Origin: a virus
Taxonomy: Duplodnaviria; Caudoviricetes
Virus record (IMG/VR): IMGVR_UViG_3300043803_000445
Coordinates: 498 to 64,497 of that record
DNA length: 64,000 bases
Direction: 5' to 3' (one strand)
Position numbers and translations under genes: made by a program. The notes beneath the pieces are model-generated. The model had not been told where the DNA came from. It ran no database searches and worked only from the letters and a program-made list of their open reading frames with translations. This document shows, piece after piece, positions 8,667-64,000 of the stretch (positions are counted from its first letter, which is position 1; each line of letters starts with the position of its first letter).

Positions 8667-8688
8667 AACAATAGAGTTTATTAATTAT

Positions 8689-11516: not shown

Positions 11517-11717
11517 TTAGGATTTGTTTTCTAATAGTTTTGTTAGTAATAATTTTATCTCCGTCAATTCAGTCTTTAAATTTTCAATTTCAGTTTTTTC
11601 ATCCAACGATGAATTTTTAACTTTCAAGTATTCTTGATATTCGTAATCATTGCAATTTATGATTGCATTTGATTTTTCATCACGATATAATCCTTTATGT
11701 CCTTCTACTGGTATCAT
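11517..11717 (-). CDS. Conserved small protein with C-terminal coiled coil
   Basis: MIPVEGHKGLYRD...AIIN; coupled to the upstream giant gene. Confidence 0.7.
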   Translation of the reverse strand: MIPVEGHKGLYRDEKSNAIINCNDYEYQEYLKVKNSSLDEKTEIENLKTELTEIKLLLTKLLENKS

Positions 11718-42648: not shown

Positions 42649-42829
42649 AATTTTATGTGGACCTTTTTGGAGAAATTTTTTTGCTGGAAATTTTTTTATA
42701 TTTAAGTGTATTTGACTGCCAAAAGCAAGACTGTGTAGACTACAGGGACCCATTAAAATTATATACGGGGGCAACGGTTTATAATAAGAATAACAAACAA
42801 CATAAAATAACTGTCTATTATAATAAACG

Positions 42830-43260
42830 AACAATAACGAATACTTTATATTCATTACTGTGTTATTAGAATAACAAACTATATGGGGGGTGTTGCTATA
42901 ACGAACGGGCACGATATAAGTCATTATACAACACTGTCAGATTCAAATACGAAACTGTATGGGGGGTGGTATAAATGACGAAGTGCTTCTAAAGTATAAG
43001 ATATGGAGACTACAAGTTTGTACACAGTTCTGTGTACAACGAATAGTATAGCACAGGACTGAAAGAATTACAAACTATATGGGGGGTGTCATATAACACT
43101 ACTGTTGTATTGTTATACTATAAGACGAGCATATACTTATACTGTGAGTACAACGAAGTGCTATAACGAACTGTTATGTATAACGAACTCATAGGACGAA
43201 GGAGTTTATAACACGAATAGTTTTCCACAGGGTATAACGAACTCTGTGGAATATAACGAA
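42830..43260. repeat. Dispersed iteron-like repeats (T)ATAACGAA and TATGGGGGGTG
   Basis: ATAACGAA near 42834, 42898, 43163, 43180, 43234, 43253 plus variants; ATGGGGGGTG three times (about 42883, 42959, 43079); palindrome TTGTACACAG-tt-CTGTGTACAA at 43018-43039. Confidence 0.75.
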
Positions 43261-50927: not shown

Positions 50928-51305
50928 TCAGAACTCAATTGGTTCAAGAGTAGGTTCAGGGAATCCAAACTCAGTAGGAGATACTTTTACAAACTCATCA
51001 GTACCTTCAACTTGCTTATAGCAATTCAAAGAACCCTCAATAACCTTATTAAGTTCAGGATTCACCTTATCAACCCCTACAGAGTCATTATACACAGTTT
51101 CTTGATTGTTGTCAACATCAAAGATGATAAGATTCTCAGCAGCACTCTTTGCTTCTTTGAGAGTCTTACAAACGTGCTGAGGAGTATCTACAACATCAAC
51201 AACCATCCACTTGGAAGCATTTACTCTACGAATGAATCCAACAGTGTTAGAATCCTTCTGGATCTCGTAAACACCAGCAGACAGACGGGGAAAGGTGAAA
51301 GTCAT
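50928..51305 (-). CDS. Hypothetical protein
   Basis: 125-aa ORF. Confidence 0.6.
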   Translation of the reverse strand: MTFTFPRLSAGVYEIQKDSNTVGFIRRVNASKWMVVDVVDTPQHVCKTLKEAKSAAENLIIFDVDNNQETVYNDSVGVDKVNPELNKVIEGSLNCYKQVEGTDEFVKVSPTEFGFPEPTLEPIEF

Positions 51306-51337
51306 AATGAAGTGTGATTGATTAACTTAAGTGTGAA

Positions 51338-51586
51338 TCAGTAGCAATACTCAGGAAGAATACAGAAATTACCACAATACTTACGAACCCAGTTCAAGGT
51401 GTCAGCATAGCAACGAGGTTCAGATACGATTGTGCTCACATTTTTACGAGGATTGTAAGCAACAGCAACATAACGATAACAATCAGGAGATTCTTCAATC
51501 TCTTGAATCCACATTTGATTGACATTACCTTCGTGCCAATCCCAACGGGAAGTGGTGTAGTTAAAGATAGTATCAAGGTCTGCCAA
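51338..51586 (-). CDS. Hypothetical protein
   Basis: TTG start with AAGGAG RBS after a promoter cassette. Confidence 0.6.
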   Translation of the reverse strand: MADLDTIFNYTTSRWDWHEGNVNQMWIQEIEESPDCYRYVAVAYNPRKNVSTIVSEPRCYADTLNWVRKYCGNFCILPEYCY

Positions 51587-51647
51587 GTGGTCTCCTTTGC
51601 TTGTGTCCCTGTATTATAGGGCATCAGAGGGGTCTGCGGGACTTTAC

Positions 51648-51671
51648 TGTGCCAGTGCTACAGGTGGCACA
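51648..51671 (-). promoter_or_regulatory. Early promoter palindrome
   Basis: TGTGCCAGT-N6-GGTGGCACA; nearly identical to 49188-49216. Confidence 0.75.
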
Positions 51672-51676
51672 CCTTA

Positions 51677-51868
51677 TCATTTTGTGGACTCTTTTGCAAG
51701 AATAATTTCATCATATTGACTTGGATAAACTAAAAGACAAACATTTTTTGATCTATGTTCCATTCTACGAACACAAATTGTGATGTATTTCTCACAGACA
51801 AAATCAACCCTTCCATACATTCCACGATAGTAAACTTCAATTCCTTCTGCAAATGTTATCCTTGGCAT
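51677..51868 (-). CDS. Small SH3-like beta protein, hypothetical
   Basis: V.Y.G..G.V.FVC..YITIC pattern. Confidence 0.5.
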   Translation of the reverse strand: MPRITFAEGIEVYYRGMYGRVDFVCEKYITICVRRMEHRSKNVCLLVYPSQYDEIILAKESTK

Positions 51869-51974
51869 TTTGTAGATAAAGGGCAATTCTCTTGCATTAG
51901 TTTATCAGCATTATGAGATACTGTAAATCCTAATGCAAGGGAAGTTAAAGCAAAACAACAGATGAGGAAACTAT

Positions 51975-52382
51975 TCATCGTGCGTAAAGATAACCACCCG
52001 CCCAGTCTGCACGTTGATACATCTCTTCACGAGACTTATCATCCATAAGGTTATATCGAACACCTTTTGCAGGAGATTTCCAACTGGCAGACTTATACAC
52101 ATCACCAGTATTCAAATCAACAAATGCGTGAGCACTTCTTTGACCACTGGGTTGAGTGATGTGAATAATACGAGCATACTTTCTACCTTTCTCGTAAGTA
52201 TACTCATCCACACCTTCACCCATTGCAAGTGCATCAATTTGTTTTTGATGCCATTCTTGAGTTTCTGGGTCGTCAAGATGCCTACGGTGAGAAGCAATAG
52301 AATACTCTTGATAATTAGTGCGAAGAACTCGGCAAAACTCCTCAATTCGGTCAATAACTTTTTCAGTCATCAGAGTAGTCAT
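51975..52382 (-). CDS. Conserved hypothetical protein
   Basis: GRKYARI...AHAFVD..TGDVYKSASWKSPAKGVRY. Confidence 0.7.
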   Translation of the reverse strand: MTTLMTEKVIDRIEEFCRVLRTNYQEYSIASHRRHLDDPETQEWHQKQIDALAMGEGVDEYTYEKGRKYARIIHITQPSGQRSAHAFVDLNTGDVYKSASWKSPAKGVRYNLMDDKSREEMYQRADWAGGYLYAR

Positions 52383-52504
52383 TTGAAGTTTAGTTTGTTT
52401 TTGAGATGTTGAAGTGCTTGCTTGCGGGATTTAAGTTTTCCCTTACAAGTTCCTTTAGTATTCTTTTGTTTTCCTGAGTTATGTTTCCAATTTGGGGTAG
52501 TCAT
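52379..52504 (-). CDS. Small basic protein (41 aa)
   Basis: Not in ORF track; MTTPNWKHNSGK...SRKQALQHLK; AAGGAG RBS. Confidence 0.6.
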   Translation of the reverse strand: MTTPNWKHNSGKQKNTKGTCKGKLKSRKQALQHLKNKLNFK

Positions 52505-52561
52505 CTCCTTTCCTTGGTATGAACCTATTGTAGGGCATCAGGGAGGTCTGTGGGACTTTAG

Positions 52562-52585
52562 TGTGCCACTAGAAAAAGTGGCACA
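52562..52585 (-). promoter_or_regulatory. Early promoter palindrome
   Basis: TGTGCCACT-N6-AGTGGCACA. Confidence 0.8.
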
Positions 52586-53062
52586 TCAATTATAACAATA
52601 CTCTTTCCACTCAGTAACATTTGATCTATCCAAAGAAAATAACATTTTATTAAATGGTTTCTTTGGTATAGTTTGAAGAATCATATTAGTATCTTCAAGC
52701 AGTTTATCACCTTTTCTTGTATTGCAGGGCATACAAGCAACTACAAGATTTTCCCAAGTATCTTCACCACCACGAGAACGTGGAATGATATGGTCGATAG
52801 TTAAATCTCTTGTTGAACCACAATACTGACACTTATGCCCATCACGTTTATAAATCATAGTTCGTGATGGTTTATTTTGTGAAATCTTAGCATAAGGTAT
52901 TTTAATGTAATTGATCAAACGAATAACTCTACCACTCAGTGCTTTTGCTTTATTTTTCATAAGCAATACAACTGCTCTACGCCAATTTGTAAATTGAAGT
53001 GGTTCAAAACTTGCGTTTAGAACAAGAATAGTTTGATTTGGTTCAATTTTTAAGTAATCCAT
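52586..53062 (-). CDS. HNH endonuclease (McrA-like, CxxC)
   Basis: LVLNASFEPL, RDGHKCQYCG, TIDHIIPRSRGG, WENLVVAC..CN..K. Confidence 0.9.
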   Translation of the reverse strand: MDYLKIEPNQTILVLNASFEPLQFTNWRRAVVLLMKNKAKALSGRVIRLINYIKIPYAKISQNKPSRTMIYKRDGHKCQYCGSTRDLTIDHIIPRSRGGEDTWENLVVACMPCNTRKGDKLLEDTNMILQTIPKKPFNKMLFSLDRSNVTEWKEYCYN

Positions 53063-53085
53063 CGACCTTTTGCGTTTTTACAGAA

Positions 53086-53108
53086 TAGGGAGATTTTACC
53101 TCCCCTAG
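53086..53108 (-). terminator. Hairpin / probable terminator
   Basis: GGGAG...CTCCC stem directly after the phosphoesterase stop. Confidence 0.45.
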
Positions 53109-53111
53109 TAT

Positions 53112-53885
53112 CTAGATGTCAAAGATTTTATCTGGAAAGAATCCAGTATTTTGACCTGGATAACCTCCAGGATTACAAATTACTCTACATCCTTCGATTA
53201 TATAATCGAAGTGATTGTGAGTATGTCCGTGTACCCAGTATTTAATTTGTGGATGATTGATAATCAAGTCATCAAGGTTACTTACATAAGCACCATTTGC
53301 TTCATTCTTAAATTGTGCAGCAACCGATTGATAACTCGGTGCGTGATGACTGATAACAAATACATTGTCATTCAGTGTTTGTAGTTGATTGAGAAGATAG
53401 TTCTTGCTTTCTTTATGAAATGCAAGAGTATCATCTGCTCTCATCTTACGAAACATACTACCAATACGAATGACTTTGTAATCATTCATATTGCACTCTG
53501 CTTCCATCATTTCCAGAGCATTTTCATTACGAAAATCAGTCCACAATGTGAAACCAATAAAGTTCCAATTGTTGATGGTTATTGTATCATTATCAAGAAG
53601 ATGAAAGTTATGAGGAAGATTCTCTTTTAGTTTCTTTTTGGTTCCTTCATAATTGTATCCATAATAGCAATGATTCCCAAGAACATATAATATATGTGAA
53701 AAATCTTTTGAACAGTTATCCACAAAACGAAGATAAATGTCTTTTAATTTTCCATTTGTTTTTAAATACTTTGCTGGAAATATATCTCCTGCCAGCACTA
53801 ATATATCAGCAGTTCCTAAGTTTGGAATTTCTTCAAAAGAGTTTAAAAATTCAAGGTGCAAATCTGATGCTACTTTAACTTTCAT
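53112..53885 (-). CDS. Calcineurin-like metallophosphoesterase
   Basis: SDLH, AGD, GNH, HHAP, GHTH motifs. Confidence 0.9.
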   Translation of the reverse strand: MKVKVASDLHLEFLNSFEEIPNLGTADILVLAGDIFPAKYLKTNGKLKDIYLRFVDNCSKDFSHILYVLGNHCYYGYNYEGTKKKLKENLPHNFHLLDNDTITINNWNFIGFTLWTDFRNENALEMMEAECNMNDYKVIRIGSMFRKMRADDTLAFHKESKNYLLNQLQTLNDNVFVISHHAPSYQSVAAQFKNEANGAYVSNLDDLIINHPQIKYWVHGHTHNHFDYIIEGCRVICNPGGYPGQNTGFFPDKIFDI

Positions 53886-54450
53886 TTTGAATTTTAGTAA
53901 TTTTTAAAATATCTTTGTGAGGTGATTTCTGGAGATTGCAAGCTAAATTAAATAAATTTTGTTTTTTGTATCCATTGTTTCTTCCCCACTCCGTCAAACA
54001 ATGAACAGTTTCTTTTTTTCCATTTAAAAATTCAACTTCATAATAATTTGACCTTGGATTGTTTTTTCCTAAGACATTGTGATGATTTTTGCTTATTTTT
54101 AATTTTGTTTCCTTTTTATGTCCTTTTCCAAACAAAGGGTGCAATTTTCCTTTCATAACTGGGAATTTTCCTCCACCTGGAGAACTATTCAGTCCTTTTT
54201 CTAAAGTATTAAATGTTTCAATATAAAAACATTCTTTTCCATTTAATTGATTAACCTCACACTGCTCAACAATCCCAATTATGAAATCATCCCATCCAGT
54301 TTTATTTGCTTGTATGTATAATTTTGCTCTGGAACTTTTTGCAGATGCGTATTTGTGATATCTTAGTCTATCTTGTATACTTCTTCTGGTTTGCCCAATA
54401 TATTTCTCTCCAGTGGAAATACAGTGGATACAATAAATAGTACCTTTCAT
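53875..54450 (-). CDS. GIY-YIG homing endonuclease with NUMOD3-like repeat
   Basis: GTIYCI...YIGQT...R...E...N; HPLFGKGHKKETKLKIS; true start MKGTIY at 54450. Confidence 0.88.
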   Translation of the reverse strand: MKGTIYCIHCISTGEKYIGQTRRSIQDRLRYHKYASAKSSRAKLYIQANKTGWDDFIIGIVEQCEVNQLNGKECFYIETFNTLEKGLNSSPGGGKFPVMKGKLHPLFGKGHKKETKLKISKNHHNVLGKNNPRSNYYEVEFLNGKKETVHCLTEWGRNNGYKKQNLFNLACNLQKSPHKDILKITKIQNES

Positions 54451-54554
54451 AACTGCTCTTTGTTGGGTGCAGTAGTATTTATAATAGAAGAGGAGCATCT
54501 CTGCCCCTCTCTTACCTGTGAAGATTGCACCCAACTCAGGCACTATTATTTAGA
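54451..54554 (-). ncRNA. Dual late promoter / antisense sRNA module, copy 1
   Basis: TCTAAATA 54547-54554; arm 54525-54535; hairpin with GAGA loop 54487-54511; TATAAATA 54476-54483; complementary leader 54462-54471. Confidence 0.6.
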
Positions 54555-54567
54555 TAATAAAATATAA

Positions 54568-54640
54568 CAGGCGTATTAGGATTCGAACCTAAGATGAGGA
54601 GGTAGAAGCTCCTAGTGATAATCCACTTCACCATACGCCC
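54568..54640 (-). tRNA. tRNA-Arg(UCU)
   Basis: GGGCGTA/TACGCCT acceptor stem, AGGAG-CTTCTAC-CTCCT anticodon arm, GGTTCGAATCC T arm; CCA not encoded. Confidence 0.92.
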
Positions 54641-54643
54641 AAG

Positions 54644-54720
54644 AGACCCTCTGGTTTGTGCATTGTAAAGAGGCATAGAGGGTGTGGGACTTACTCAAAG
54701 TTTGGACCTTTGATGCCCCT
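54644..54720 (-). ncRNA. Structured RNA (two hairpins) immediately 5' of the tRNA
   Basis: UCAAAG-GUCCAAA-CUUUGA inside a GGGC/GUCC stem, then an ACCCUCU...AGAGGGU stem. Confidence 0.45.
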
Positions 54721-54724
54721 AAAC

Positions 54725-54976
54725 TCAACCGTTAAGAACTTGAGGATTAGTATCCTCTGCGTCAAGTTTATTTAGAACATACTGGATAGGTTTCAGTTCT
54801 TCCTTGAGACCATTTTCAAGTTCTTGGAACGTTTCAACCAGTGCTTCAAAGAGTTCAGAACCAGTCAGGTCTTCGTAATCATAATCATTAAAGATGTTTT
54901 CACGGAAATACTCAGTGAGTGCATCTTTCAGAGATTCAACCATTTGTTGCGAAGCAGACTTAGAACGACGTGCCAT
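54725..54976 (-). CDS. Hypothetical acidic protein
   Basis: 83-aa ORF. Confidence 0.6.
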   Translation of the reverse strand: MARRSKSASQQMVESLKDALTEYFRENIFNDYDYEDLTGSELFEALVETFQELENGLKEELKPIQYVLNKLDAEDTNPQVLNG

Positions 54977-55058
54977 AATAAAGAATAAAGAACAGTGAGT
55001 GGGTAACTTTATCGGTCAGATATTTCCAACCCATTGGCAAACCCATTCCATTTGAGAA

Positions 55059-55202
55059 TCAAACACCCAAAGGATATTCAATTTCAATTTCATCTTCATC
55101 AGGAAGACCAAGTTGAAGACCTATGAAATCATCATAGTCAACACCGAGATACTTTTGAGCAAAGTCCTCATAATCATCGTGAAGAACACAAGTGTCAATC
55201 AT
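55059..55202 (-). CDS. Small acidic protein (47 aa)
   Basis: Not in ORF track; GGAGG RBS; downstream of the cassette at 55266-55289. Confidence 0.55.
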   Translation of the reverse strand: MIDTCVLHDDYEDFAQKYLGVDYDDFIGLQLGLPDEDEIEIEYPLGV

Positions 55203-55265
55203 CGTGAAACCTCCTTGACTTGATGAATACATCATAGCACGGTCAGTGCCATTTGGAAAGTGTTA

Positions 55266-55289
55266 TGTGCCACCAAAAAAAGTGTCACA
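55266..55289 (-). promoter_or_regulatory. Early promoter palindrome
   Basis: TGTGCCACC-N6-AGTGTCACA. Confidence 0.7.
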
Positions 55290-55518
55290 AGGTCTCAACA
55301 TCTCCAAGCAATTCTGGATTGTATTCTGTAATTTCTGTAAGAAGATCTTCGTCAGTGTAAGATTCTAGATTTTCTTTCAGAGTATCATAAACAAAACACT
55401 CCATTGTTTTCATATCCATTCCGTCCAGAATCTGTTGTGCGTAATTTTCAATCAGTTCTTCACGATTGGTATTTTTCATTGTTTCAAATTTGAGAATTTC
55501 AGAGTAAAGATCAACCAT
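55285..55518 (-). CDS. Hypothetical acidic protein
   Basis: ILDGMDMKT...EYNPELL. Confidence 0.6.
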   Translation of the reverse strand: MVDLYSEILKFETMKNTNREELIENYAQQILDGMDMKTMECFVYDTLKENLESYTDEDLLTEITEYNPELLGDVETL

Positions 55519-55739
55519 CAGACAGCATCAATTTCAGCAAGTTTCTTTTGCTTTCGCAAGTCAGTAATTCTCATTTGAAGATCAGCAATGTCTTCATATA
55601 GAACTTCTGCCTCATCAGAAAGATTTTCATATTGAAATGAAGACCTTGCTTTCTTCATTTGTTTGAGAAGTTTATCATATTTCTTCTTTGCTTCTTTGAG
55701 ATCTTTTTCGTAATCTTGAATAGACTTTGAGTAGTTCAT
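55518..55739 (-). CDS. Coiled-coil hypothetical protein
   Basis: Heptad-rich 73 aa. Confidence 0.6.
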   Translation of the reverse strand: MNYSKSIQDYEKDLKEAKKKYDKLLKQMKKARSSFQYENLSDEAEVLYEDIADLQMRITDLRKQKKLAEIDAV

Positions 55740-55861
55740 TTTTTGAGAGGACTAGACCAATAAGAACGGAAAACAGTGATAACAATAACAGCAGTGCTAA
55801 CAACACCAACCAAACCAAGGAAGGTAACGGCATCACCAGTAAAATTGAACGTGTCGGGCAT
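55736..55861 (-). CDS. Single-pass membrane peptide (41 aa)
   Basis: Not in ORF track; FLGLVGVVSTAVIVITVF hydrophobic stretch. Confidence 0.55.
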   Translation of the reverse strand: MPDTFNFTGDAVTFLGLVGVVSTAVIVITVFRSYWSSPLKK

Positions 55862-55952
55862 CATTTGAGTCGTTTACTTCGTAATCATAACACAAAAATT
55901 AGGAACTCGCAACTATCGGTGGACAGTTCAGCAAGTGTCCCAAAACTATTTA

Positions 55953-56141
55953 CTATGGAGAAGGATCATAATAAACAATTTCTTCCAGCATTGGAAGAAT
56001 CTCATACTCTATATCATCAAGATGCTGTTGCATAATTGTCATATCCATCATATGTAATTTATTTTCTCTTTCTACAAGTTCTTTAAGAATCTTGTATGCT
56101 TTTTCAACTTCACCGTATGCGTAAATTGTATGACTCACCAT
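55953..56141 (-). CDS. Hypothetical protein
   Basis: Small ORF ending LEEIVYYDPSP. Confidence 0.5.
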   Translation of the reverse strand: MVSHTIYAYGEVEKAYKILKELVERENKLHMMDMTIMQQHLDDIEYEILPMLEEIVYYDPSP

Positions 56142-56398
56142 TCACCTCGTTGAATCATAATCTTTTTAATTTCTGTGTAGATGAACTTCTTTAGATTCTC
56201 ATCATTTGTATTTTCAAAAGCAACATACAATCTCTTTAGATAGTCTTCTTGTTTTGTGATATTCACAACTTTAGCATTTGTGACACCAATATCACGCAAA
56301 GAAGAACCTGCTTTTGTTTTTGCCCTTCCAAAATTGCCAGTTACATTACCTTGAGTACGAAGTTTAGGTTTGATTTTAGAAAGATTGGAAGTCGTCAT
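56135..56398 (-). CDS. Hypothetical basic protein
   Basis: MTTSNLSKIKPKLRTQG...; AAGGAA RBS after the cassette at 56455-56476. Confidence 0.6.
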   Translation of the reverse strand: MTTSNLSKIKPKLRTQGNVTGNFGRAKTKAGSSLRDIGVTNAKVVNITKQEDYLKRLYVAFENTNDENLKKFIYTEIKKIMIQRGEW

Positions 56399-56466
56399 CG
56401 TTCCTTTGAGGATGTACTCATTATAGGGCATCCAGAGGAGTCTGGAGTGCCCTGTGTGCCAGTTGG

Positions 56467-56835
56467 TCAGGTGTCCTTGTCAATCATATCACCAACAAGG
56501 TCATTAAGTCTGTCAAACATATTGTTATCAAAAGGAACTGTTTTTACCTTACCAGTTTCCACATCATCTGCCATTTGCATCAAACTTTCTAGAAACTCCT
56601 TTGGGTAAATGTCATCTTCCAAACTATCCCAGAAATAAAGAGCACACTGCTCTAATGGGTCATCACTTACAAGAAGAGCATATTCTTGATAATTGTTTCC
56701 CATCAGGTCTCCCCAATTCTTAAAAGCATACCAACAATTATACCATCCTTGAATAATACAAGAATGCCAGATATACTCAACCCAAGAGAGTTTGGTTTGA
56801 TTCTTATTAGTTCCTAGAAGTGCTTTTGAAAACAT
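56467..56835 (-). CDS. Trp-rich hypothetical protein
   Basis: ORF track. Confidence 0.6.
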   Translation of the reverse strand: MFSKALLGTNKNQTKLSWVEYIWHSCIIQGWYNCWYAFKNWGDLMGNNYQEYALLVSDDPLEQCALYFWDSLEDDIYPKEFLESLMQMADDVETGKVKTVPFDNNMFDRLNDLVGDMIDKDT

Positions 56836-56858
56836 TTACTTTATTTGATATTGAAAAA

Positions 56859-57221
56859 TTAGTCATCCCAAGGTGCTTTACGTTGAAGTAATTTAGCAAT
56901 CTTTTCGTTGTATTGTGGTGGTTCATTCAGTCGTTCTACAAGAGCATCAAAATCTTTTGCTGGTAGGACAATCTTTTCTGGTTCCACTCCTTTACCCCAG
57001 AACTTCTCAAACTCCCACTTATACTCCATATCACACCAACCAGAGTTGATAGAATACCAAAACTCTTTCCAAACATAATAGTCATCAAAACGAAATCCTT
57101 CGTGGTTGATAAGACGATACCACCACCAGAAACTTGAGTATTTTATGTATCTGTTGCTGATTATAAGTTTGTTAATAAGTATCATCATAAAATTCGTAGA
57201 TAATCTCTGCGGTTTCATCAA
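56859..57221 (-). CDS. Trp-rich hypothetical protein with DUF1778-like C-terminus
   Basis: C-term IVLPAKDFDALVERLNEPPQYNEKIAKLLQRKAPWD resembles antitoxin-like DUF1778 tails. Confidence 0.5.
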   Translation of the reverse strand: MMKPQRLSTNFMMILINKLIISNRYIKYSSFWWWYRLINHEGFRFDDYYVWKEFWYSINSGWCDMEYKWEFEKFWGKGVEPEKIVLPAKDFDALVERLNEPPQYNEKIAKLLQRKAPWDD

Positions 57222-57510
57222 TCAGTTCTGATGTAATTATACCACAATCACATTCTTTTGGAATAAAGACATTATATTTCTCACCAAATGGCAACCAACC
57301 ACGATTAAACTTCTGTTCCAGATATGCTACGTGTTTCTCACCTTCTTCTGTGAATGGTTGTTGAAAAAGATAATGTAAAGCATCGTGCTCTGCATATGCC
57401 CTAAGTGCTCTTTCTGTTTTGTATGGAAACTTATTTTGATGAATAACTGTCACAACCCAACGACGATGAATTTTTTGTGGAATAGTATCCAAGAATTGTT
57501 GAATGTCCAT
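57172..57510 (-). CDS. Hypothetical protein
   Basis: EHDALHYL...F....E motif. Confidence 0.55.
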   Translation of the reverse strand: MDIQQFLDTIPQKIHRRWVVTVIHQNKFPYKTERALRAYAEHDALHYLFQQPFTEEGEKHVAYLEQKFNRGWLPFGEKYNVFIPKECDCGIITSELIDETAEIIYEFYDDTY

Positions 57511-57734
57511 TACCATCTTCCCAACCGCAGTTTGCGTTCAGGTGAAATATAGGGGTTATATGGGTCATCATAAGGATAAATGTATTCACAACACCAACCC
57601 CACGACAATGCCTCCCAGAAGTCATCAGGAAAGTGCTCAACAGTCTCATGACAATCCATAATGTATGGAATGTTGCGAAAACCTTCAATAAACCATTCCC
57701 ATTTAGTCATTTGCCAGTATTCTTTAGGGGTCAT
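57510..57734 (-). CDS. Trp-rich hypothetical protein
   Basis: MTPKEYWQMTKWEWF...DFWEALSWGW; start reassigned. Confidence 0.55.
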   Translation of the reverse strand: MTPKEYWQMTKWEWFIEGFRNIPYIMDCHETVEHFPDDFWEALSWGWCCEYIYPYDDPYNPYISPERKLRLGRW

Positions 57735-57738
57735 AATG

Positions 57739-57936
57739 TTATCCGCAGTTGGGCATCCAGATGGTAGAGAGTTTGTTTTTCTTTGCAGTGATATTGAAGT
57801 GGTCAATTTGACCATTCTTATGATAGATTCCGCACCAGAGGAATCCATCATCCATCATCTCAAAGTGTATCATATCAATGTCCCTGACGACAATCTCATC
57901 AGGATTCTTTTCATCTTTCATTTCTTCCATTTCCAT
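57739..57936 (-). CDS. Hypothetical protein
   Basis: NPDEIV...HFEMMD...W.GIY. Confidence 0.6.
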   Translation of the reverse strand: MEMEEMKDEKNPDEIVVRDIDMIHFEMMDDGFLWCGIYHKNGQIDHFNITAKKNKLSTIWMPNCG

Positions 57937-58074
57937 TCACTCTTGATACTCCACTCTGTTCTAATGTAAGAGTAGTTTAGATAATCCCAAAAAATACCTT
58001 GATAATCTTCAAAGTCCCATTCAGGGTCACGACCATCATAAGTCATCAGTTGTTTCCACAACTCAAAACATATT

Positions 58075-58386
58075 TTAAATGCTTTCATTGTTCTTTCTCA
58101 CTCGTTCAAGAAATGCAGTTGCTTGTTCATCCAATCGTGCAATCAAATCTTCAATATCACTAATTTCAATCTCATTATACTCACGATTGAGGTTCTCACA
58201 ACGAAGTGCGTCAATTGCGGACTGTAGGGTGATGATTTGCATATGTTCCATCGTTATAGGCATACCTTGAGGCATACCAGAGGTTTCAAGATTATAAAAG
58301 TCATTATATCGTTGAATAACACGATTACTTTTTTCCCTCCTCTCTGCCTCTTCAAAAAATTCGTCAGGATAAGGTTCGCAGTCCAT
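58075..58386 (-). CDS. Hypothetical protein
   Basis: 103-aa ORF behind a promoter cassette. Confidence 0.6.
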   Translation of the reverse strand: MDCEPYPDEFFEEAERREKSNRVIQRYNDFYNLETSGMPQGMPITMEHMQIITLQSAIDALRCENLNREYNEIEISDIEDLIARLDEQATAFLERVRKNNESI

Positions 58387-58467
58387 AATGGTTCTTTTGA
58401 TTTCCCTTATTATACAACAAAAAAGGTGCCCTGTAAAGGCACCTTGTTCCAGTTCGTCAAGTGTCTT

Positions 58468-59256
58468 TTATGATACTCTAACTCTTTGAGAAGTGTCTAT
58501 ACCCTTATGTTTTTGGTATCTTGAAAGTCCTCCTGGTGTAGAAATATGACCTGTTTCTAAACACATCCATCTTTGAGAACTTGTAGATTTTCCTCCAATT
58601 TTTCCAGATTTTTTACCAATTTCACTTCTCTGTTCTTTGGATAATCCACAAATACCAACACCCAATTCTTTTGTTTTATTTCCTCCAATTTTTCCTCCAA
58701 CTTTACCTGCTTTACTCCTTACTTTTTGCTGTTCTTCTTCCGTCATAGCAAAAAATCCCAACCCAAGTTCTTTATTTTTCAATCCACCTTTACTTCTTTG
58801 CTCATTTGTTAGAGTAAATAAACCAGTTTTAGTTTTTCTATGCTTTTCAATCATTTTTTTAGAATTTTCACTTAATTGTTCTTTTGTAAGTGAATGAAAT
58901 CCCAAACCAAATTCTTTTGCTTTTTCTCCACCAATTTTGCCGTTTAGAACTCTTTGTTCTGGTGGTGTAACATAATAAAACTTTGTAGAAGTTTGATAAG
59001 ACTTATTCGCAAAATGAGGATTTTCAACTACCTTATAATGTTCTTGTAAAATAATCTCATCAGCATATGCTTCTTCTCGTGTAGCATAAGTTTTTAAAAT
59101 TATTTTTTGTGTTGGTTTAAAACTTTTATCCTTAAAGGAACCAAAATACTTTACATCTTCTTCTGGAAGACATCTACAAGTTCTACTACCAAAATATCCT
59201 CTACCATATTCCTCATAAGAATAATAGACATAGTGATACTCTCTTGGAGTTTCCAT
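58468..59256 (-). CDS. Seg-like (GIY-YIG variant) homing endonuclease with GKxGG repeats
   Basis: HYVYYS...GYFGSR...YFGS...E...N catalytic-like domain; repeated G.F.LT.EQ/GK.GG units; C-term QRWMCLETG. Confidence 0.72.
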   Translation of the reverse strand: METPREYHYVYYSYEEYGRGYFGSRTCRCLPEEDVKYFGSFKDKSFKPTQKIILKTYATREEAYADEIILQEHYKVVENPHFANKSYQTSTKFYYVTPPEQRVLNGKIGGEKAKEFGLGFHSLTKEQLSENSKKMIEKHRKTKTGLFTLTNEQRSKGGLKNKELGLGFFAMTEEEQQKVRSKAGKVGGKIGGNKTKELGVGICGLSKEQRSEIGKKSGKIGGKSTSSQRWMCLETGHISTPGGLSRYQKHKGIDTSQRVRVS

Positions 59257-59361
59257 AGTTCTGCTTTATGTTGTGCCGCAATAGTATTTATACAAGAAAG
59301 GGTGCCCGAAGACACCCAATCTCTGCTATGGTTGCGACACACATAAGCATCTTTATTTATC
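59257..59361 (-). ncRNA. Dual late promoter / antisense sRNA module, copy 2
   Basis: ATAAATA 59354-59360; arm 59332-59349; C(UUCG)G terminator 59300-59317; TATAAATA 59285-59292; complementary leader 59262-59281. Confidence 0.62.
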
Positions 59362-59508
59362 AGTATCCTCTTTCTTTTGCTTTTCAATAAGTTCTTTCAG
59401 TTTCTCTCTACCATAATCCGTCAATTCCTTTTTAGCATTTCTCAAATTCTCAATTTCACTTTGAGAAAGAAAGAAAGCATCAGGAAGATGCCCGTATTCT
59501 TCACTCAT
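59353..59508 (-). CDS. Small protein (51 aa)
   Basis: Not in ORF track; MSEEYGHLPDAFFLSQSEIENLRNAKKEL... Confidence 0.5.
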   Translation of the reverse strand: MSEEYGHLPDAFFLSQSEIENLRNAKKELTDYGREKLKELIEKQKKEDTDK

Positions 59509-59705
59509 CTCAAATCTCTCTCTAAAATATCAATACAATCTGCCCATCCACTGAAATAGTCAAAATCGTATTTGTTGTTGTCTTCTTTATGATAGTTTTT
59601 CAACCATTCCTTCACAACATTCACAATCTCATTTGCGATTACATCACCAGATTGAACGGCATCGTGAGTATAATACCATTCCGTAAGTCGTTCGTGAAGT
59701 TTCAT
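59505..59705 (-). CDS. Hypothetical protein
   Basis: Resembles the C-terminal domain of the adjacent 244-aa protein. Confidence 0.55.
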   Translation of the reverse strand: MKLHERLTEWYYTHDAVQSGDVIANEIVNVVKEWLKNYHKEDNNKYDFDYFSGWADCIDILERDLR

Positions 59706-60436
59706 CGCAACATCTCCTTGATTTTACGCAAACAATCATTAAATCCATCCACAAGCAATTCAGTATCTACATTTTGACTTCCTGCTGCTGATTGTTCTTT
59801 CGGCAACCATCTCTCCACCAAATCTACAAACTCATCACAACAATTAAAAGAATATCCAAGTTCATCTCTTACCATATTGTAGAGTTTTTGAGATTTATGT
59901 TTCTCCACCAACCTATTCACAACCTCATCGGTAATGTATGAAGCAGGATTATCTTTCTTATCCCAATATGCTCTCACATTTTTATAAGGTTCTGTTGTCG
60001 TTACATCATCATACTTTCCCTTCTTCACATCGTTGAACCACACACCTTCAAGAAGACGACGAGTTTCACCATCCATAATAACAGCAAGCATCATACCATC
60101 AACAGTATGCTTTTTCTTAAACCAATTATGACTTTCATCATTAAATTGAAGACGAAGATATTCTTCATCATTATAAGAGACAATCTCAAACTTTCCACCA
60201 TAATCAAAAGTCATTTTGGGTTGAGATTTATGTGTTTCAATCTCTTTGAGGAGTTCAAGTTTCTTTTGAAGCACTTTGATTTCTGCTTCTGTTTTTTCAA
60301 TATCGGTGTTAAAAGTCATTTGTTTAAGATAAGGAGTAGCATCCATCACACCATCTTTGATTGCTTGTCTAAAAGCATTACGCAATCCTTCATCAACTTC
60401 TTCGTTTGTCTGTGGTTTTGGTTGAAATTCAGTCAT
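59702..60436 (-). CDS. Modular hypothetical protein
   Basis: 244 aa; coiled coil plus C-term WLPKEQSAAGSQN...GFNDCL. Confidence 0.65.
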   Translation of the reverse strand: MTEFQPKPQTNEEVDEGLRNAFRQAIKDGVMDATPYLKQMTFNTDIEKTEAEIKVLQKKLELLKEIETHKSQPKMTFDYGGKFEIVSYNDEEYLRLQFNDESHNWFKKKHTVDGMMLAVIMDGETRRLLEGVWFNDVKKGKYDDVTTTEPYKNVRAYWDKKDNPASYITDEVVNRLVEKHKSQKLYNMVRDELGYSFNCCDEFVDLVERWLPKEQSAAGSQNVDTELLVDGFNDCLRKIKEMLR

Positions 60437-60671
60437 TGTTCGTCAGTCCTACTTCAAGTCCTTCCATTCTTCCCATATTATAACCCATAACAAACGCAGA
60501 ATGCAACCACTTATACATCAAATCCTGACGGGTCTTCACATCACCAATTTCCGCATCACCATAGAACCACTCGGATCGTAAGGAAAAACCACCATCAAGG
60601 TCGTGAAACCACTCTACAAATTTGTCTTCAATTGTATCATCAAAGTCCCAATCGTTTGTAGGATGAGTCAT
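60429..60671 (-). CDS. Hypothetical protein
   Basis: FSLRSEWFYGD...WLHSAF; start MTHPTN. Confidence 0.6.
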   Translation of the reverse strand: MTHPTNDWDFDDTIEDKFVEWFHDLDGGFSLRSEWFYGDAEIGDVKTRQDLMYKWLHSAFVMGYNMGRMEGLEVGLTNND

Positions 60672-60856
60672 AAGTCCAAAGGTTGCTGTCGGTTGGCACT
60701 CCAAGGTTTGGTAAAAACTAACCATTTTTCAATATTAGGAGACATTTCAGCAGAGTAATGAATCCCATTTTCACTGATTGCGTCCAAAAAATGAACACCA
60801 GTCTTGGGGCAGATGACTCTGGATACTTGTGTGAATTTTACTCGTTCAGTCATCAT
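60668..60856 (-). CDS. Hypothetical protein
   Basis: RVICPKTGVHFLDAI. Confidence 0.55.
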   Translation of the reverse strand: MMTERVKFTQVSRVICPKTGVHFLDAISENGIHYSAEMSPNIEKWLVFTKPWSANRQQPLDL

Positions 60857-61061
60857 CAGAACTCCAAGTATTCATTTTGGTGCTTACATTACTACTTTCC
60901 CAACCTTCATCGTATCCTACTTTGAAACCTTCTGTGTAGATTAATGCAGAAAATTTCAAGAGTTGTTTTTTGGTTGATGTAATATTATCTGGAAATTCAT
61001 CAAACCCACAGGTTTTAGCAAGTTTTAGGATTTGTTCGTCAGTTGGTTCAGTCATAATCAA
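60846..61061 (-). CDS. Hypothetical protein
   Basis: PTDEQILKLA motif. Confidence 0.55.
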   Translation of the reverse strand: MIMTEPTDEQILKLAKTCGFDEFPDNITSTKKQLLKFSALIYTEGFKVGYDEGWESSNVSTKMNTWSSDDD

Positions 61062-61291
61062 TAATCAACTCCTTCTACTCTATTATCCCAATTTGGTCTC
61101 ATTACACCTTTTTTATCCCAATGTGCTCTCACATCTTTAAACCTAAACTTATAAAGTCGTTGAACAGCACCATTGCGATTTATGATTTCGTTTTCCAACT
61201 GACGAATGTAGATATAAACTGGGTCGGGCACTTCAAAGTTTTGAAGGTCTTTATAGGGCATATTGTAACACGAAATGTAGGATTTAGTCAT
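61058..61291 (-). CDS. Hypothetical protein
   Basis: VPDPVYIYIRQLE. Confidence 0.55.
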   Translation of the reverse strand: MTKSYISCYNMPYKDLQNFEVPDPVYIYIRQLENEIINRNGAVQRLYKFRFKDVRAHWDKKGVMRPNWDNRVEGVDY

Positions 61292-61292
61292 T

Positions 61293-61511
61293 TCACTTCA
61301 CCTCATTATAAAATACAGGAACTTCACCACAAATAGAATTTGCTGAATGACCTACGGTATAAGATTTCCTACATTCTATCACAATCTCATAAGATTTCAA
61401 GAACATCTCCCTGTCCTTTTGAGTATTGTAAGTGTTTAGTAGTTCCATAGAAAGGAAATAACCAGTGACGATGAGAAGTGGAATGATGAGAGTAAAGATA
61501 AAGAGTTTCAT
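61293..61511 (-). CDS. Membrane-anchored small protein
   Basis: N-terminal hydrophobic helix, two Cys. Confidence 0.55.
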   Translation of the reverse strand: MKLFIFTLIIPLLIVTGYFLSMELLNTYNTQKDREMFLKSYEIVIECRKSYTVGHSANSICGEVPVFYNEVK

Positions 61512-61804
61512 AGTTTTTCCAGTTCCTCACACAATTCTAACACATCAGCACACATAATCACACCAGGACTTTGTTGGAGTTGGTTGATTGTCTCACGAAG
61601 AACAGAAGCAATAATTTTTCTACTATCATTATCCAAATAAGTAGAAAAGTTCTCCACAGGGGTCATTAGTGCTTCTGAATATCCGTTGATGTAAGTATTC
61701 CAGATTTTTTGTGCTCTTTCAGTCATATTAGTAATTTTAGTTTTTTTGAGAGGACCATAAACTTGTTCCATTAGATTTTGAAAATCCTTTTCAATACCAA
61801 ACAT
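61508..61804 (-). CDS. MTERAQ-family small protein
   Basis: Paralog of the adjacent ORFs. Confidence 0.6.
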   Translation of the reverse strand: MFGIEKDFQNLMEQVYGPLKKTKITNMTERAQKIWNTYINGYSEALMTPVENFSTYLDNDSRKIIASVLRETINQLQQSPGVIMCADVLELCEELEKL

Positions 61805-62031
61805 TAGAGTGCCTCCAATTCATCAGCAAGGTCATAAAGCAAACGAGCATCAACTACCATATCTTCTACACTTTCATCTTTACAACACTGATAGTATTGA
61901 AACTCATTCACAATAGCACGAATAGCAGCAGCAACACCATCATTGTTAAGTTTTTGAACAATGAAATCTTGTCTTTTATCTACGAAAGTAAGGTAAAATG
62001 CTTCCATAATCCTTTGTGCTCGTTCAGTCAT
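61804..62031 (-). CDS. MTERAQ-family small protein
   Basis: Paralog; ends LADELEAL. Confidence 0.6.
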   Translation of the reverse strand: MTERAQRIMEAFYLTFVDKRQDFIVQKLNNDGVAAAIRAIVNEFQYYQCCKDESVEDMVVDARLLYDLADELEAL

Positions 62032-62234
62032 AGTGCCTCCACATCATCAGCAATCTCATTCAGTTCATCAGCAATATGAAGATGCCAAGGTTCATTTTCA
62101 AGAACTCCATCTCTATGAATGATAGAAGAAATCACACGAATAGAAGATGCTAATGCTTCTTTCATATCATCTGTTGCTGGTTGTGTAAGTTCTGCTTTGA
62201 ATGTTTCCCAGATTTGATATGCGGTGTTATTCAT
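62028..62234 (-). CDS. MTERAQ-family small protein
   Basis: Paralog; ends IADDVEAL. Confidence 0.6.
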   Translation of the reverse strand: MNNTAYQIWETFKAELTQPATDDMKEALASSIRVISSIIHRDGVLENEPWHLHIADELNEIADDVEAL

Positions 62235-62268
62235 AAGTCCTTTGTGTATGAGGTCATTATACGACAAA

Positions 62269-62313
62269 GGACACCTGTTTTCAAGTGTCCTTATGCCAGT
62301 TCGTCAAGTGTCC
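62269..62313 (-). promoter_or_regulatory. Tandem pair of early promoter palindromes
   Basis: GGACAC...AGTGTCC (62269-62290) and TGCCAGT-N6-AGTGTCC (62294-62313). Confidence 0.65.
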
Positions 62314-62997
62314 TTATGATATTCGTTTTCTTTTGGAAGTATCTATTCCTCTTGCTTTTTGATAACGAGTAAGTGGTCCAGAAGTAGATACATAACCAGT
62401 TTCAAGACACATCCATCTTTGTGAGTTGGTCTTTTCAACAACTTTTAACCTTTCTTCTAATGTTAATGAAAAGCACCCAGTTTTATTCTGAAAATGGTTT
62501 TTTCCAGATATACTTCCACCTATTTTACCATTTTCAGTCATTTGTTTTTTAGTTCTTCCGTGAACTCCAAGTTTTAATTGATATATTATTTTTCCTCCCT
62601 TTTTACCATCTTCACTCATTTTTTCTGGACTTCTACCACATACTCCTGTTTTATTTTGTTTGGATTTTAAACCAACCTTTTTACCAGTTTCTCTATTAAT
62701 GTTTAAAGAAACAATACCACCACAACTTTCATTCAAGCACCATTTGTCTATATTATAAAATGGTCTAATCAATCTTGTTTCAATTTCTTGTGCTTCAATC
62801 CACCCTTCATCTGTGTAAGGAAAAACTTGAAGTATTTGTTTCTTTGGAGTATAAAGTTCCCAGCACCACTTATGAGTTATAGGTGTTCCCCAATATTCTT
62901 GATTGAAGTATTTTTCTCTTTTTACTCCATAGTAATAATAAGGAACTTCTTCAAAAGTAATTTTGTATATGTAAATTCTTGGACTATGTTTAGTCAT
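62314..62997 (-). CDS. Seg-like GIY-YIG homing endonuclease with GKxGG repeats
   Basis: IYIYKITF....YYYGV...YWG...E...N; GKKGG repeats; C-term QRWMCLETG shared with 58468-59256. Confidence 0.75.
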   Translation of the reverse strand: MTKHSPRIYIYKITFEEVPYYYYGVKREKYFNQEYWGTPITHKWCWELYTPKKQILQVFPYTDEGWIEAQEIETRLIRPFYNIDKWCLNESCGGIVSLNINRETGKKVGLKSKQNKTGVCGRSPEKMSEDGKKGGKIIYQLKLGVHGRTKKQMTENGKIGGSISGKNHFQNKTGCFSLTLEERLKVVEKTNSQRWMCLETGYVSTSGPLTRYQKARGIDTSKRKRIS

Positions 62998-63104
62998 CGT
63001 TATTCTACAGAAACCGCATTACTATTTATAATAGAAAAGGTGCCCATAAGAGCACCTAATCTGTCCGTAGAGAATTGCGGTTCCTATAGACATTTTTATT
63101 TATA
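62998..63104 (-). ncRNA. Dual late promoter / antisense sRNA module, copy 3
   Basis: TATAAATA 63097-63104; arm 63076-63090; terminator 63038-63057; TATAAATA 63023-63030; complementary leader 63004-63018. Confidence 0.62.
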
Positions 63105-63324
63105 GCAGTTCAAGTTCATCAATAATACCATCAATCTCTTTGAGACATTCATCCCATCCAGCATTAAACATCACATTTAGTTCATCCTTAAAATCAACAG
63201 GATTTTGCCCTGATAGTTGCTTACGAAGATGTTGAAGAACCTCTTGAAGCATCCAAGCAGTATTGTGTGCTTCACTTTTACAAATAACTTTTAGGAGTTC
63301 TTCTGCTCTTTCTTGGTTAGTCAT
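63100..63324 (-). CDS. Hypothetical protein (distant MTERAQ family)
   Basis: MTNQERAEE...IIDELELL. Confidence 0.55.
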   Translation of the reverse strand: MTNQERAEELLKVICKSEAHNTAWMLQEVLQHLRKQLSGQNPVDFKDELNVMFNAGWDECLKEIDGIIDELELL

Positions 63325-63444
63325 AATACTGCTGCGATTACTGCTGGTAGAGTGTTTGTGGTTTTGTCTGTTGGTTCTTGTGATTTTTTCTCTTTGTATT
63401 CTTCAAGTGCTTTGAGAAAGATTTCCTCTTCTCTTTGAAGGTCG

Positions 63445-63591
63445 TCAGGCATTTTCTTTTACCTCTGGTTCTGGTGTTCCCCAACGATTTAGTGCCTCAC
63501 GGATAGTATTTCTAACTTCGGGATAAAGATTGTAATAACCTCCAATCTCATCCCAGAGTTCATCAAGTTGTTCGTCAGTTGGGTTAGACAT
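63445..63591 (-). CDS. Small protein (48 aa)
   Basis: Not in ORF track; MSNPTDEQLDELW...EALNRWG; GGAGG RBS. Confidence 0.5.
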   Translation of the reverse strand: MSNPTDEQLDELWDEIGGYYNLYPEVRNTIREALNRWGTPEPEVKENA

Positions 63592-63592
63592 T

Positions 63593-63805
63593 TCAGTTGT
63601 CCTCCGTCAAACGAATGTAAAGTTCAAGTTCTCCTCTCATATCATAAAAATACGATTTTCCCCTATCAAGAATAAAAGTATCATAATCTTCTTGTGTGGG
63701 TTCCTCTTCCATTTCCATATCCTTCCAAACTTCCAAGAAATCTTCAACGGACATATGATATTCCAGAGGAATGTATGCGACTTTGGGAATGATTGAGTTA
63801 GTCAT
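63593..63805 (-). CDS. Hypothetical acidic protein
   Basis: First gene after the cassette at 63828-63884. Confidence 0.6.
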   Translation of the reverse strand: MTNSIIPKVAYIPLEYHMSVEDFLEVWKDMEMEEEPTQEDYDTFILDRGKSYFYDMRGELELYIRLTEDN

Positions 63806-63827
63806 TTGGTTGGTTGCTTATGAGAGT

Positions 63828-63884
63828 ATTATAGGGCACTCACAGGGTCTGTGATGAGGTCTTATGCCAGTTTAGAAAGTGTCC
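63828..63884 (-). promoter_or_regulatory. Early promoter cassette
   Basis: TGCCAGT-N6-AGTGTCC (63865-63884) and TGCCC-TATAAT. Confidence 0.75.
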
Positions 63885-64000
63885 TGATAATACATCTCCT
63901 GTTCATAACGGACATAATCACTTTGAAGATAGTTAAAGAACTCTCCGTCTTCACTTCTCATAGTATAGCACCATTCTTCAAAGATTTGCCCAATCCACCA

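Follow-up and report, generated by a model that had tools for sequence, protein, structure and literature searches.

The 64,000-nucleotide stretch of DNA from a T4-like cyanophage analysed here (IMG/VR record IMGVR_UViG_3300043803_000445, positions 498 to 64,497; hereafter the window) contains three genes for homing-endonuclease-like proteins, each directly preceded by a conserved leader of about 105 bases, and it is this leader that concerns us, as it probably keeps the nuclease silent until late in infection, perhaps partly via a small antisense RNA. All genes of the window lie on the minus strand and its GC content is 33%. Behind a T4-like structural block with baseplate wedge, head closure, sheath stabiliser, large terminase and tail sheath come many small open reading frames (ORFs). 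The closest cultured relative is Synechococcus phage S-SRM01 (Kyanoviridae), with similarity that is patchy only. Nuclease gene 1 (53875-54450, minus strand; 191 amino acids) matches the Pfam families GIY-YIG and NUMOD3, gene 2 (58468-59256, minus strand; 262 amino acids) matches PHROG 314, "homing endonuclease", and gene 3 (62314-62997, minus strand; 227 amino acids) matches the same PHROG weakly. All three match PHROG 314 across the same region of the profile, genes 2 and 3 have a C-terminal, DNA-binding tail in common, and neither of these two has a match in Pfam, even at an E-value of 10. Two further nuclease genes of the window, at 52586-53062 and 41908-42924 (both minus strand; Pfam HNH and HNH_3), have no leader. 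The original prediction had assigned a leader to each GIY-YIG/Seg endonuclease gene. This was too broad, for the leader is present at three of the five nuclease genes of the window and at 6 of about 14 in S-SRM01; it was also too narrow, since the label suits gene 1, which passes the Pfam GIY-YIG threshold, but not genes 2 and 3, which are recognised by PHROG 314 only, and HNH genes of related phages carry the leader too.

The three leaders (54554-54448, 59361-59254 and 63104-62995, minus strand, as are all their parts) have one layout. On the coding strand, a promoter-like octamer N(A/C)TAAATA, which we call P1, comes first. Five A/T-rich bases separate it from a 5' arm, after which there is a GC-rich hairpin that ends in a U-rich tail; a second octamer, P2 (TATAAATA), and another five bases precede a 3' arm that is the complement of the 5' arm, and 8-11 further bases lead to the ATG. 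In copy 1 the late-promoter-like P1 is TCTAAATA (54547-54554, predicted +1 at 54541), which contains the CTAAATA variant used by the late promoter of phage Aeh1 (PMC1524935). A 5' hairpin, GCCUG/CAGGU (54514-54541), holds the 5' arm GUUGGGUGCA (54535-54526) on its loop side, the GC-rich terminator hairpin with its GAGA loop (54488-54511) is followed by CUAU and then by P2 (54476-54483, predicted +1 at 54470), and the 20-nucleotide 5' untranslated region (UTR; 54451-54471) contains the 3' arm UGCACCCAAC (54471-54462) and leads to the ATG at 54450. In copy 2, P1 (GATAAATA, 59354-59361, predicted +1 at 59348) overlaps the stop codon of the upstream ORF, the 5' arm UGCUUAUGUGUGUCGCAA (59349-59332) and the 5' hairpin GCU.UAUG/CAUAGC (59348-59325) together occupy 59325-59349, the terminator hairpin GGGUGUC-UUCG-GGCACCC (59300-59317) runs into UUUCUUG, and P2 (59285-59292, predicted +1 at 59279) precedes a 23-nucleotide UTR (59257-59281) with the 3' arm UUGCGGCACAACAUAAAGCA (59281-59262) and the ATG at 59256. 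P1 of copy 3, which is TATAAATA (63097-63104, predicted +1 at 63091), likewise overlaps the upstream ORF's stop codon; here the 5' arm UCUAUAGGAACCGCA (63090-63076) and the 5' hairpin GUCU../..GGAC lie at 63063-63091, the terminator hairpin AGGUGCUC-UUAU-GGGCACCU (63038-63057) is followed by UUUCUAU, and P2 (63023-63030, predicted +1 at 63017) stands before a 20-nucleotide UTR (62998-63018) with the 3' arm UGCGGUUUCUGUAGA (63018-63004) and the ATG at 62997. The GC-rich stem, short loop and U-rich tail are those of intrinsic terminators; a scan for such terminators flags copies 2 and 3, and in copy 1 a stem of 10 bp is followed by a weaker tail.

The common layout, with every listed element on the minus strand, the loops GAGA, UUCG and UUAU and the arm sequences are therefore as originally predicted, and the mismatches between the arms are indeed G-U pairs (two in copy 3; one, plus two bulges, in copy 2). 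The UTR had been put at about 25 nucleotides and measures 20-23, and the late promoter said to head each leader is present as a motif in all three, but in copy 1 as TCTAAATA and not as the full TATAAATA. The folding energies of 121-nucleotide segments are -43.6, -39.8 and -40.2 kcal/mol for copies 1-3 (z-scores -5.1, -5.0 and -6.7), values matched by none of 200 shuffles. A covariance model of the leader (R1, see below), run on the window with filters off, finds the three leaders only (E <= 4.5e-12; next match E 1.5). The leader had been thought to correspond to no named motif, and a scan of positions 52000-64000 against Rfam 15 (E <= 1) agrees with this, as it returned only a tRNA, an abiF motif and a weak sR2 match, none of them on any leader. 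No account of the leader was found in the literature searched, a search with subscription journals and supplements outside its reach.

Both P1 and P2 fit, as a motif match only, the gp55-type late promoter octamer of T4-like phages, whose consensus in T4 spans -13 to -6 with a poorly conserved first base (PMC1524935). All five occurrences of TATAAATA in the window are on the minus strand; four belong to leaders, and the fifth lies upstream of the tail-sheath gene. The shorter ATAAATA is found 15 times on the minus strand versus three times on the plus strand, and six of the minus-strand copies are 28-45 nucleotides 5' of listed ORF starts. Two of the ORFs so preceded are confirmed structural genes (tail sheath and head-tail adaptor), and three others encode 523, 752 and 1675 amino acids. 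Judged by this minus-strand excess and by its placement before ORF starts, including those of structural genes, ATAAATA behaves as the late promoter of this phage. P2 is the full TATAAATA in 99 of 103 leaders from the window and its relatives, and the 3' arm opens with its predicted +1, always a G or an A in these 103; the UTR is 19-25 nucleotides long across leaders, most commonly 20.

The leader is widespread among related phages. A protein search of IMG/VR with the three nucleases gave 91 loci, nine of which were dropped as the match began far inside the protein. The remaining 82 loci represent 63 distinct upstream regions, one of which (13 nucleotides) could not be assessed. The two-motif layout is present in 57 of the 62 assessable regions, one more (L085) was added later by covariance model, and the layout is absent from four (L067, L070, L081 and L084). 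A protein-independent search for a DNA pattern, the terminator-P2 core, gave at least 121 matches in at least 119 stretches. TAAATA lies within 75 nucleotides upstream in 118 of the 121 core matches listed, and of the three exceptions one is cut at the locus end and another has too little upstream sequence. Since linking by BLAST merged nearly all nuclease proteins into one cluster, probably owing to NUMOD3 repeats common to most types, the downstream ORFs were typed by their N-terminal motif instead: among the matches listed there are 31 GIY-YIG "YTYAYLR", 26 HNH "MNYL", 23 gene-3-like, 21 gene-2-like, four HNH "MKHIHH" and one gene-1-like ORF, and 15 of the matches listed have no ORF of 40 codons behind them (seven locus ends, five truncated nuclease starts and three with none recognisable). 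When one representative per type was scanned against Pfam and PHROG, four had NUMOD3 above the Pfam cut-off, five matched homing-endonuclease PHROGs, and the gene-3-like representative had no match. Because at least six N-terminal types, GIY-YIG-like and HNH, carry the leader, it is a module common to unrelated nuclease families and not a GIY-YIG feature. Leader classes and nuclease types are intermixed.

Model R1 finds 105 matches in 97 sources among the related IMG/VR loci, and one 14.4-kb IMG/VR sequence (L104), which is very dense in nucleases, has six leaders (4-106, 2219-2319, 6052-6160, 8581-8690, 10741-10848 and 12015-12119). In L129 (2527-2638, minus strand) and L145 the 3' arm has decayed and no nuclease ORF lies behind it, and these leaders look like remnants after gene loss. 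When three leader classes were compared by blastn with 50,697 phage records, leader-length matches appeared in S-SRM01 only. This phage has six leaders, each directly 5' of a nuclease-type gene (gp030, gp066, gp075, gp091, gp114 and gp297), and about eight other nuclease-like genes without one; of these eight, seven are preceded by a late-type motif containing TAAATA, 12-35 nucleotides before the assumed ATG, and the other one by a sigma-70-like promoter. Gene starts, too, can be corrected from the leader, for two of the S-SRM01 nuclease genes are annotated as beginning inside it: in NC_070963.1 the starts of gp075 (51291-51992) and gp297 (192466-193167) fall 57 and 54 nucleotides upstream of the leader ATG, so that both gene calls look too long. 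Another of the six, gp114 (62515-63273), is named "translation initiation factor 2" and matches the homing-endonuclease PHROG 314.

With this collection, covariation could be assessed. An alignment made with MAFFT put the variable arms out of register, and RNAalifold found 11 outer pairs and no terminator in it; the leaders were therefore re-aligned with covariance models. Model R1 covers the terminator and the long helix that joins 5' arm and UTR, and model R2, made for the counts on the 5' hairpin because one leader class was offset by 2 nucleotides in the earlier alignment, describes the 5' hairpin together with the terminator. The long helix has 13-18 bp. In the R1 alignment 95.2% of the cells in the long helix and terminator pair, versus 72.6% in shuffles, both-sided changes are seen in 24 of the 25 pairs, and the covariation score is 0.631 versus 0.200, with none of 500 shuffles reaching it and slid controls at 0.107 or less. 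The two outermost R1 pairs are C-A in many leaders, and are thus not real pairs there. All seven stem pairs of the terminator covary, with 99% of the cells paired. The 13 core pairs of the long helix comprise 1188 Watson-Crick, 76 G-U, 3 A-C and 33 other cells, and in the terminator the G-U and A-C cells number 135 versus 2. Since G-U is far above A-C in both, this places selection on the coding-strand RNA.

A second helix competes with the first. Over its first 5-8 bases, the 5' arm pairs with the stretch immediately ahead of the terminator, which gives a 5' hairpin whose loop displays the remainder of the arm (e.g. GGUCGCAU). In the R2 alignment all six pairs of this hairpin show both-sided changes and 88.4% of the cells pair; a chimeric 3' half weakens it from -6.3 to -3.7 kcal/mol, and in 101 of 104 leaders the cognate hairpin is more stable than the median chimera. 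For the RNA running from P1+6 to P2, the predicted fold consists of exactly two hairpins in each of 103 leaders, and in 95 of them the first base is paired. A count of U residues after the last stem was discarded, as RNAfold pairs the U-tract with an upstream AGA.

The arms are specific to each leader. In an alignment-free comparison of 58 leaders, the duplex between the 5' arm and the UTR is worth -22.2 +/- 1.5 kcal/mol when cognate, versus -10.1 +/- 4.1 when non-cognate, and the 58 fall into 20 cross-pairing groups. There is no cross-pairing among leaders within one genome, be it the window (3 leaders), L104 (5) or S-SRM01 (6), and for such same-genome leaders the cognate values range from -19.5 to -25.2 and the non-cognate ones from -2.8 to -16.5 kcal/mol. 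The short RNA predicted to arise from P1 would gain about -22 kcal/mol in a duplex with the P2 mRNA, compared with about -6 in its own hairpin. The original prediction of gene-specific complementarity under selection at the RNA level is borne out by these energies and by the G-U excess, and the covariance model that it had called for, built and applied to homologs, shows covariation of the long helix, the terminator and the 5' hairpin.

The TAAATA core of P1 is kept in 103 of 104 distinct leaders, the exception being truncated at the locus end, and the octamer reads NATAAATA in 80 of 103 and NCTAAATA in 23, the base before the core being A or C. The predicted +1 is a purine in 97 of 103 leaders and coincides with the first base of the covarying 5' hairpin, and between -5 and +2 the sequence (A/T-rich, T, then G-C/T) is similar to that at P2. 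One might suppose that P1 is conserved because it provides the stop codon of the gene in front. Of 101 assessable leaders this holds for 53; another 43 have the stop 5' of the motif, and in five no upstream ORF of 40 codons ends within 90 nucleotides, so that the need for a stop codon cannot explain the invariance of P1. Overall, the upstream stop is within the motif or at most 9 nucleotides upstream of it in 81 of the 101. The gp32 site, where 39 of 80 loci were read, reveals how the cassette joins its neighbour. In 36 of the 39 there is no cassette, and the gene ends in "...TGA" (in a few, TAA) and abuts a convergent gene with no spacer. The three loci with a cassette (L221, L251 and L252, the others being within L222-L260) read "...GAC TAA ATA...", and the gene 32 stop codon TAA forms part of P1. 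Comparison of occupied and empty loci thus shows that the cassette begins with the TAAATA of P1. Taken together, the invariance of P1, its position at the cassette edge, an initiation context like that of P2 and a covarying hairpin at the predicted +1 fit a real promoter that would make a terminator-ended RNA of two hairpins.

We propose that the leader is a portable expression-control unit that moves with free-standing homing-endonuclease genes in a T4-like freshwater cyanophage lineage. The account has four steps and as a whole is put forward tentatively, its chances being nearly, though not quite, even. Transcripts arriving from upstream early and middle genes would be halted by the terminator, and since this intrinsic terminator sits in the loop, most entering transcripts should stop there. 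A transcript that reads through would hold both arms, nearly the whole UTR would be locked in the long helix, and the nuclease would go untranslated. Since P2 lies between the arms, late transcripts would have the first base of the 3' arm as their 5' end, be free of the 5' arm and be translatable. Up to this point only cis functions are involved, and we consider these three steps likely. In the fourth step P1, also a late promoter, would give a two-hairpin RNA of about 50-65 nucleotides ending at the terminator, with a loop and 5' stem complementary to the first ~15 nucleotides of the P2 mRNA. This short RNA would pair in trans with its own nuclease mRNA and damp translation, and the inhibition would grow with genome copy number, as in IS10 multicopy inhibition. 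For such a trans-acting short RNA the odds seem about even; the upstream promoter core and the internal terminator support, but do not prove, a separate antisense RNA of about 55 nucleotides. In its fullest form the proposal is that every leader would express late a same-strand small RNA of ~55 nucleotides whose hairpin loop seeds on the 5' end of the nuclease mRNA, and that at least 20 orthogonal small RNA/UTR pairs would move with the cassettes, capping nuclease output as genome copies rise; this we regard as possible, if slightly on the doubtful side.

The known part of this arrangement is P2 between the arms, which is the principle of T4 I-TevI and segB. In T4 I-TevI, I-TevII, I-TevIII and segB, and in Aeh1 mobE, an inhibitory structure arises in early and middle transcripts, and late transcription is initiated within it (PMC2988022). 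As in these timing hairpins, an upstream arm of our leader pairs with the leader of a homing-endonuclease mRNA, and, as in T4 e and soc too, a TATAAATA late promoter between the arms provides late transcripts without the inhibitory arm (PMC2988022). Copy 1 resembles segB also in adjoining a tRNA gene, as the title of the SegB paper implies for T4. In Aeromonas phage 25 a very stable hairpin similarly lies just upstream of, and excludes, the ribosome-binding site of the seg-like gene seg43(25), whose available description, with which the leader was compared, includes no tandem promoters or internal terminator (PMC2988022). The new parts are the invariant upstream promoter core and the internal terminator. 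In contrast to the T4-type hairpins, the cyanophage leader has an intrinsic terminator in its loop, a second, invariant late-promoter core at its 5' edge and a covarying 5' hairpin in competition with the long helix. Its helix covers the first ~15 nucleotides of a 20-nucleotide UTR rather than the Shine-Dalgarno sequence and the AUG, and a single family of leaders is used by many nuclease genes that are unrelated.

In function, the nearest analogue is RNA-OUT of IS10, a stem-loop RNA of ~70 nucleotides whose loop pairs with the extreme 5' end of RNA-IN and whose inhibition rises with copy number, so that there, too, a mobile element restrains its own nuclease-like enzyme by RNA. RNA-OUT is transcribed from the opposite strand, whereas the candidate regulator here lies upstream on the same strand, as an inverted repeat; with both arms on the coding strand, it differs from cis-encoded antisense RNAs, which are defined by opposite-strand transcription. 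In type I toxin-antitoxin systems such as hok/Sok, a small RNA encoded adjacent to a harmful gene is complementary to the leader of that gene's mRNA. In our case the products are modular nucleases and not small toxic peptides, the regulator would be on the same strand, and differential RNA stability and post-segregational killing are without support; the description "type I antitoxin-like" goes too far, as no defining feature of that class was found. The promoter-early stem-loop (PeSL) cassettes of T4-type phages share with the leader a small conserved terminator stem-loop and a promoter beside variable genes, and modular shuffling (PMC2839356; PMC4122927). Their promoter is sigma-70-like and early and they have no arms complementary to the downstream UTR, whereas the promoter joined to the stem-loop of the leader is of the late type TATAAATA; neither "cyanophage" nor "late promoter" occurs in the accessible text of PMC4122927. 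CfrI of cyanophage S-PM2 is also a cyanophage non-coding RNA tied to a homing-endonuclease gene, but it is an opposite-strand antisense RNA of ~225 nucleotides between psbA and F-CphI, unrelated in layout and position (PMC12197685).

Several points weigh against our proposal. The alignments were fitted to the structures tested and many of the leaders are related, and the pair counts therefore overstate the number of independent changes. The long helix ends ~5-9 nucleotides short of the AUG, and the predicted opening of positions -14 to +3 is 0.40 in long transcripts versus 0.56 in P2 transcripts, the P2 transcript being predicted as the more open in 89 of 99 leaders; a translational block by a helix in a 20-nucleotide UTR is, on these folds, plausible but not obvious. 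In 23 of 103 leaders the base of P1 at -12 is C, in contrast to a P2 that is so uniformly the full octamer, and some copies of P1 may for this reason be weaker or inactive. As P1 and P2 both belong to the late class, joint synthesis of regulator and target requires the copy-number argument, which is itself inferred. No stand-alone short-RNA unit was found in S-SRM01, and the arms of its leaders, when compared with the UTRs of its eight leaderless nuclease genes, gave nothing below -15.1 kcal/mol. A purely cis element would equally never part from its target nor match other UTRs. The leader could accordingly be a cis-only insulator and timing hairpin, in which terminator and helix silence read-through and P2 gives late expression, as in T4 I-TevI and segB, P1 being inactive or its products without a role, and the 5' hairpin merely aiding folding or stabilising the 3' end of the upstream mRNA. 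This principle is established in T4 (PMC2988022), and it would agree with a unit that always adjoins its target, with the lack of cross-targeting in S-SRM01, with a P1 less canonical than P2, and with cassettes that butt on upstream gene ends, as in the 81 of 101 leaders mentioned above. What it leaves unexplained is an invariant TAAATA at a fixed 5-nucleotide distance from the hairpin base, kept even where the stop lies elsewhere (48 of 101), as well as the initiation context that P1 and P2 have in common and the covariation seen in the 5' hairpin, a competitor of the long helix, and we consider a cis-only role rather doubtful, if well worth keeping in mind.

The short RNA may instead be made and act positively, its pairing shielding the AU-rich 5' end of the P2 mRNA from decay by RNase E/J and thus raising late nuclease expression. 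Such a duplex would cover the mRNA from +1 on and leave the AUG-proximal 5-9 nucleotides open, and antisense protection from RNase E has been reported in cyanophage infection (PMC3113571). On the other hand, homing endonucleases are generally held down and not boosted (PMC2988022), and the same pairing in cis would activate read-through transcripts, defeating the internal terminator, which makes a positive role unlikely. Finally, the element may act at the DNA level, either as a PeSL-like recombination module that shuffles nucleases or as a protein operator or cruciform, with RNA pairing incidental. One conserved core does stand before at least six N-terminal nuclease types, with leader classes and nuclease types mixed, and there is precedent both in PeSL (PMC2839356) and in the autorepression of I-TevI at its own late promoter (PMC2988022). 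Yet a G-U to A-C ratio of 76:3 is unexpected for a DNA palindrome, recombination at the core would part the arms whereas all leaders hold matched ones, and a single operator could not be shared by unrelated nuclease families, so that this explanation appears very improbable.

To spread, homing endonucleases need sufficient expression, but at a level that does no harm to the phage carrying them. The homing-endonuclease genes of T4 each seem to solve this balance in their own way; here one compact, covarying leader is reused by GIY-YIG-like and HNH genes, and because a terminator and two late promoters come with it, the mobile cassette appears to include the control unit as well. If P1 does make the predicted RNA, the leader would represent an antisense regulator that is linked to a selfish gene and encoded on the same strand. 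It would also provide orthogonal RNA/UTR pairs as a ready-made set, and a self-contained, copy-number-sensing leash of a kind not described for homing endonucleases. S-SRM01, which is in culture and has six copies, makes the question directly testable.

Some observations concern the surroundings of the three cassettes. Leader 1 begins 13 nucleotides past a tRNA-Arg(TCT) gene (54567-54641, minus strand), and 4 nucleotides upstream of that tRNA gene lies an abiF RNA motif (Rfam RF03085; 54646-54682, minus strand) that scores 46.4 bits against a gathering score of 37; an abiF motif has been reported in cyanophage S-CREM1 (PMC12197685). Just 3' of nuclease gene 2 there is a PeSL-like unit (58445-58409, minus strand), in which a strong terminator hairpin overlaps a sigma-70-like promoter (11 of 12 matches), and a second sigma-70-like promoter, also with 11 of 12 matches, is found 3' of nuclease gene 3 (62284-62256, minus strand). 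These promoters behind genes 2 and 3 may restart early transcription past the cassette. In one RNA run (X1, share of words 0.05), represented by Logan contigs that carry no information on RNA ends, strand or level, one contig matches the window as far as 54493 and diverges beyond, and a contig joins 62235 to 63168, leaving out 932 bases that correspond to gene 3 and its leader; the letters at the junction are not known. The latter may be a nuclease-less allele of a related phage. Within the structural block, three ORFs on the minus strand are very large, at 11714-19138 (2474 amino acids), 20747-25774 (1675 amino acids) and 28499-36853 (2784 amino acids).

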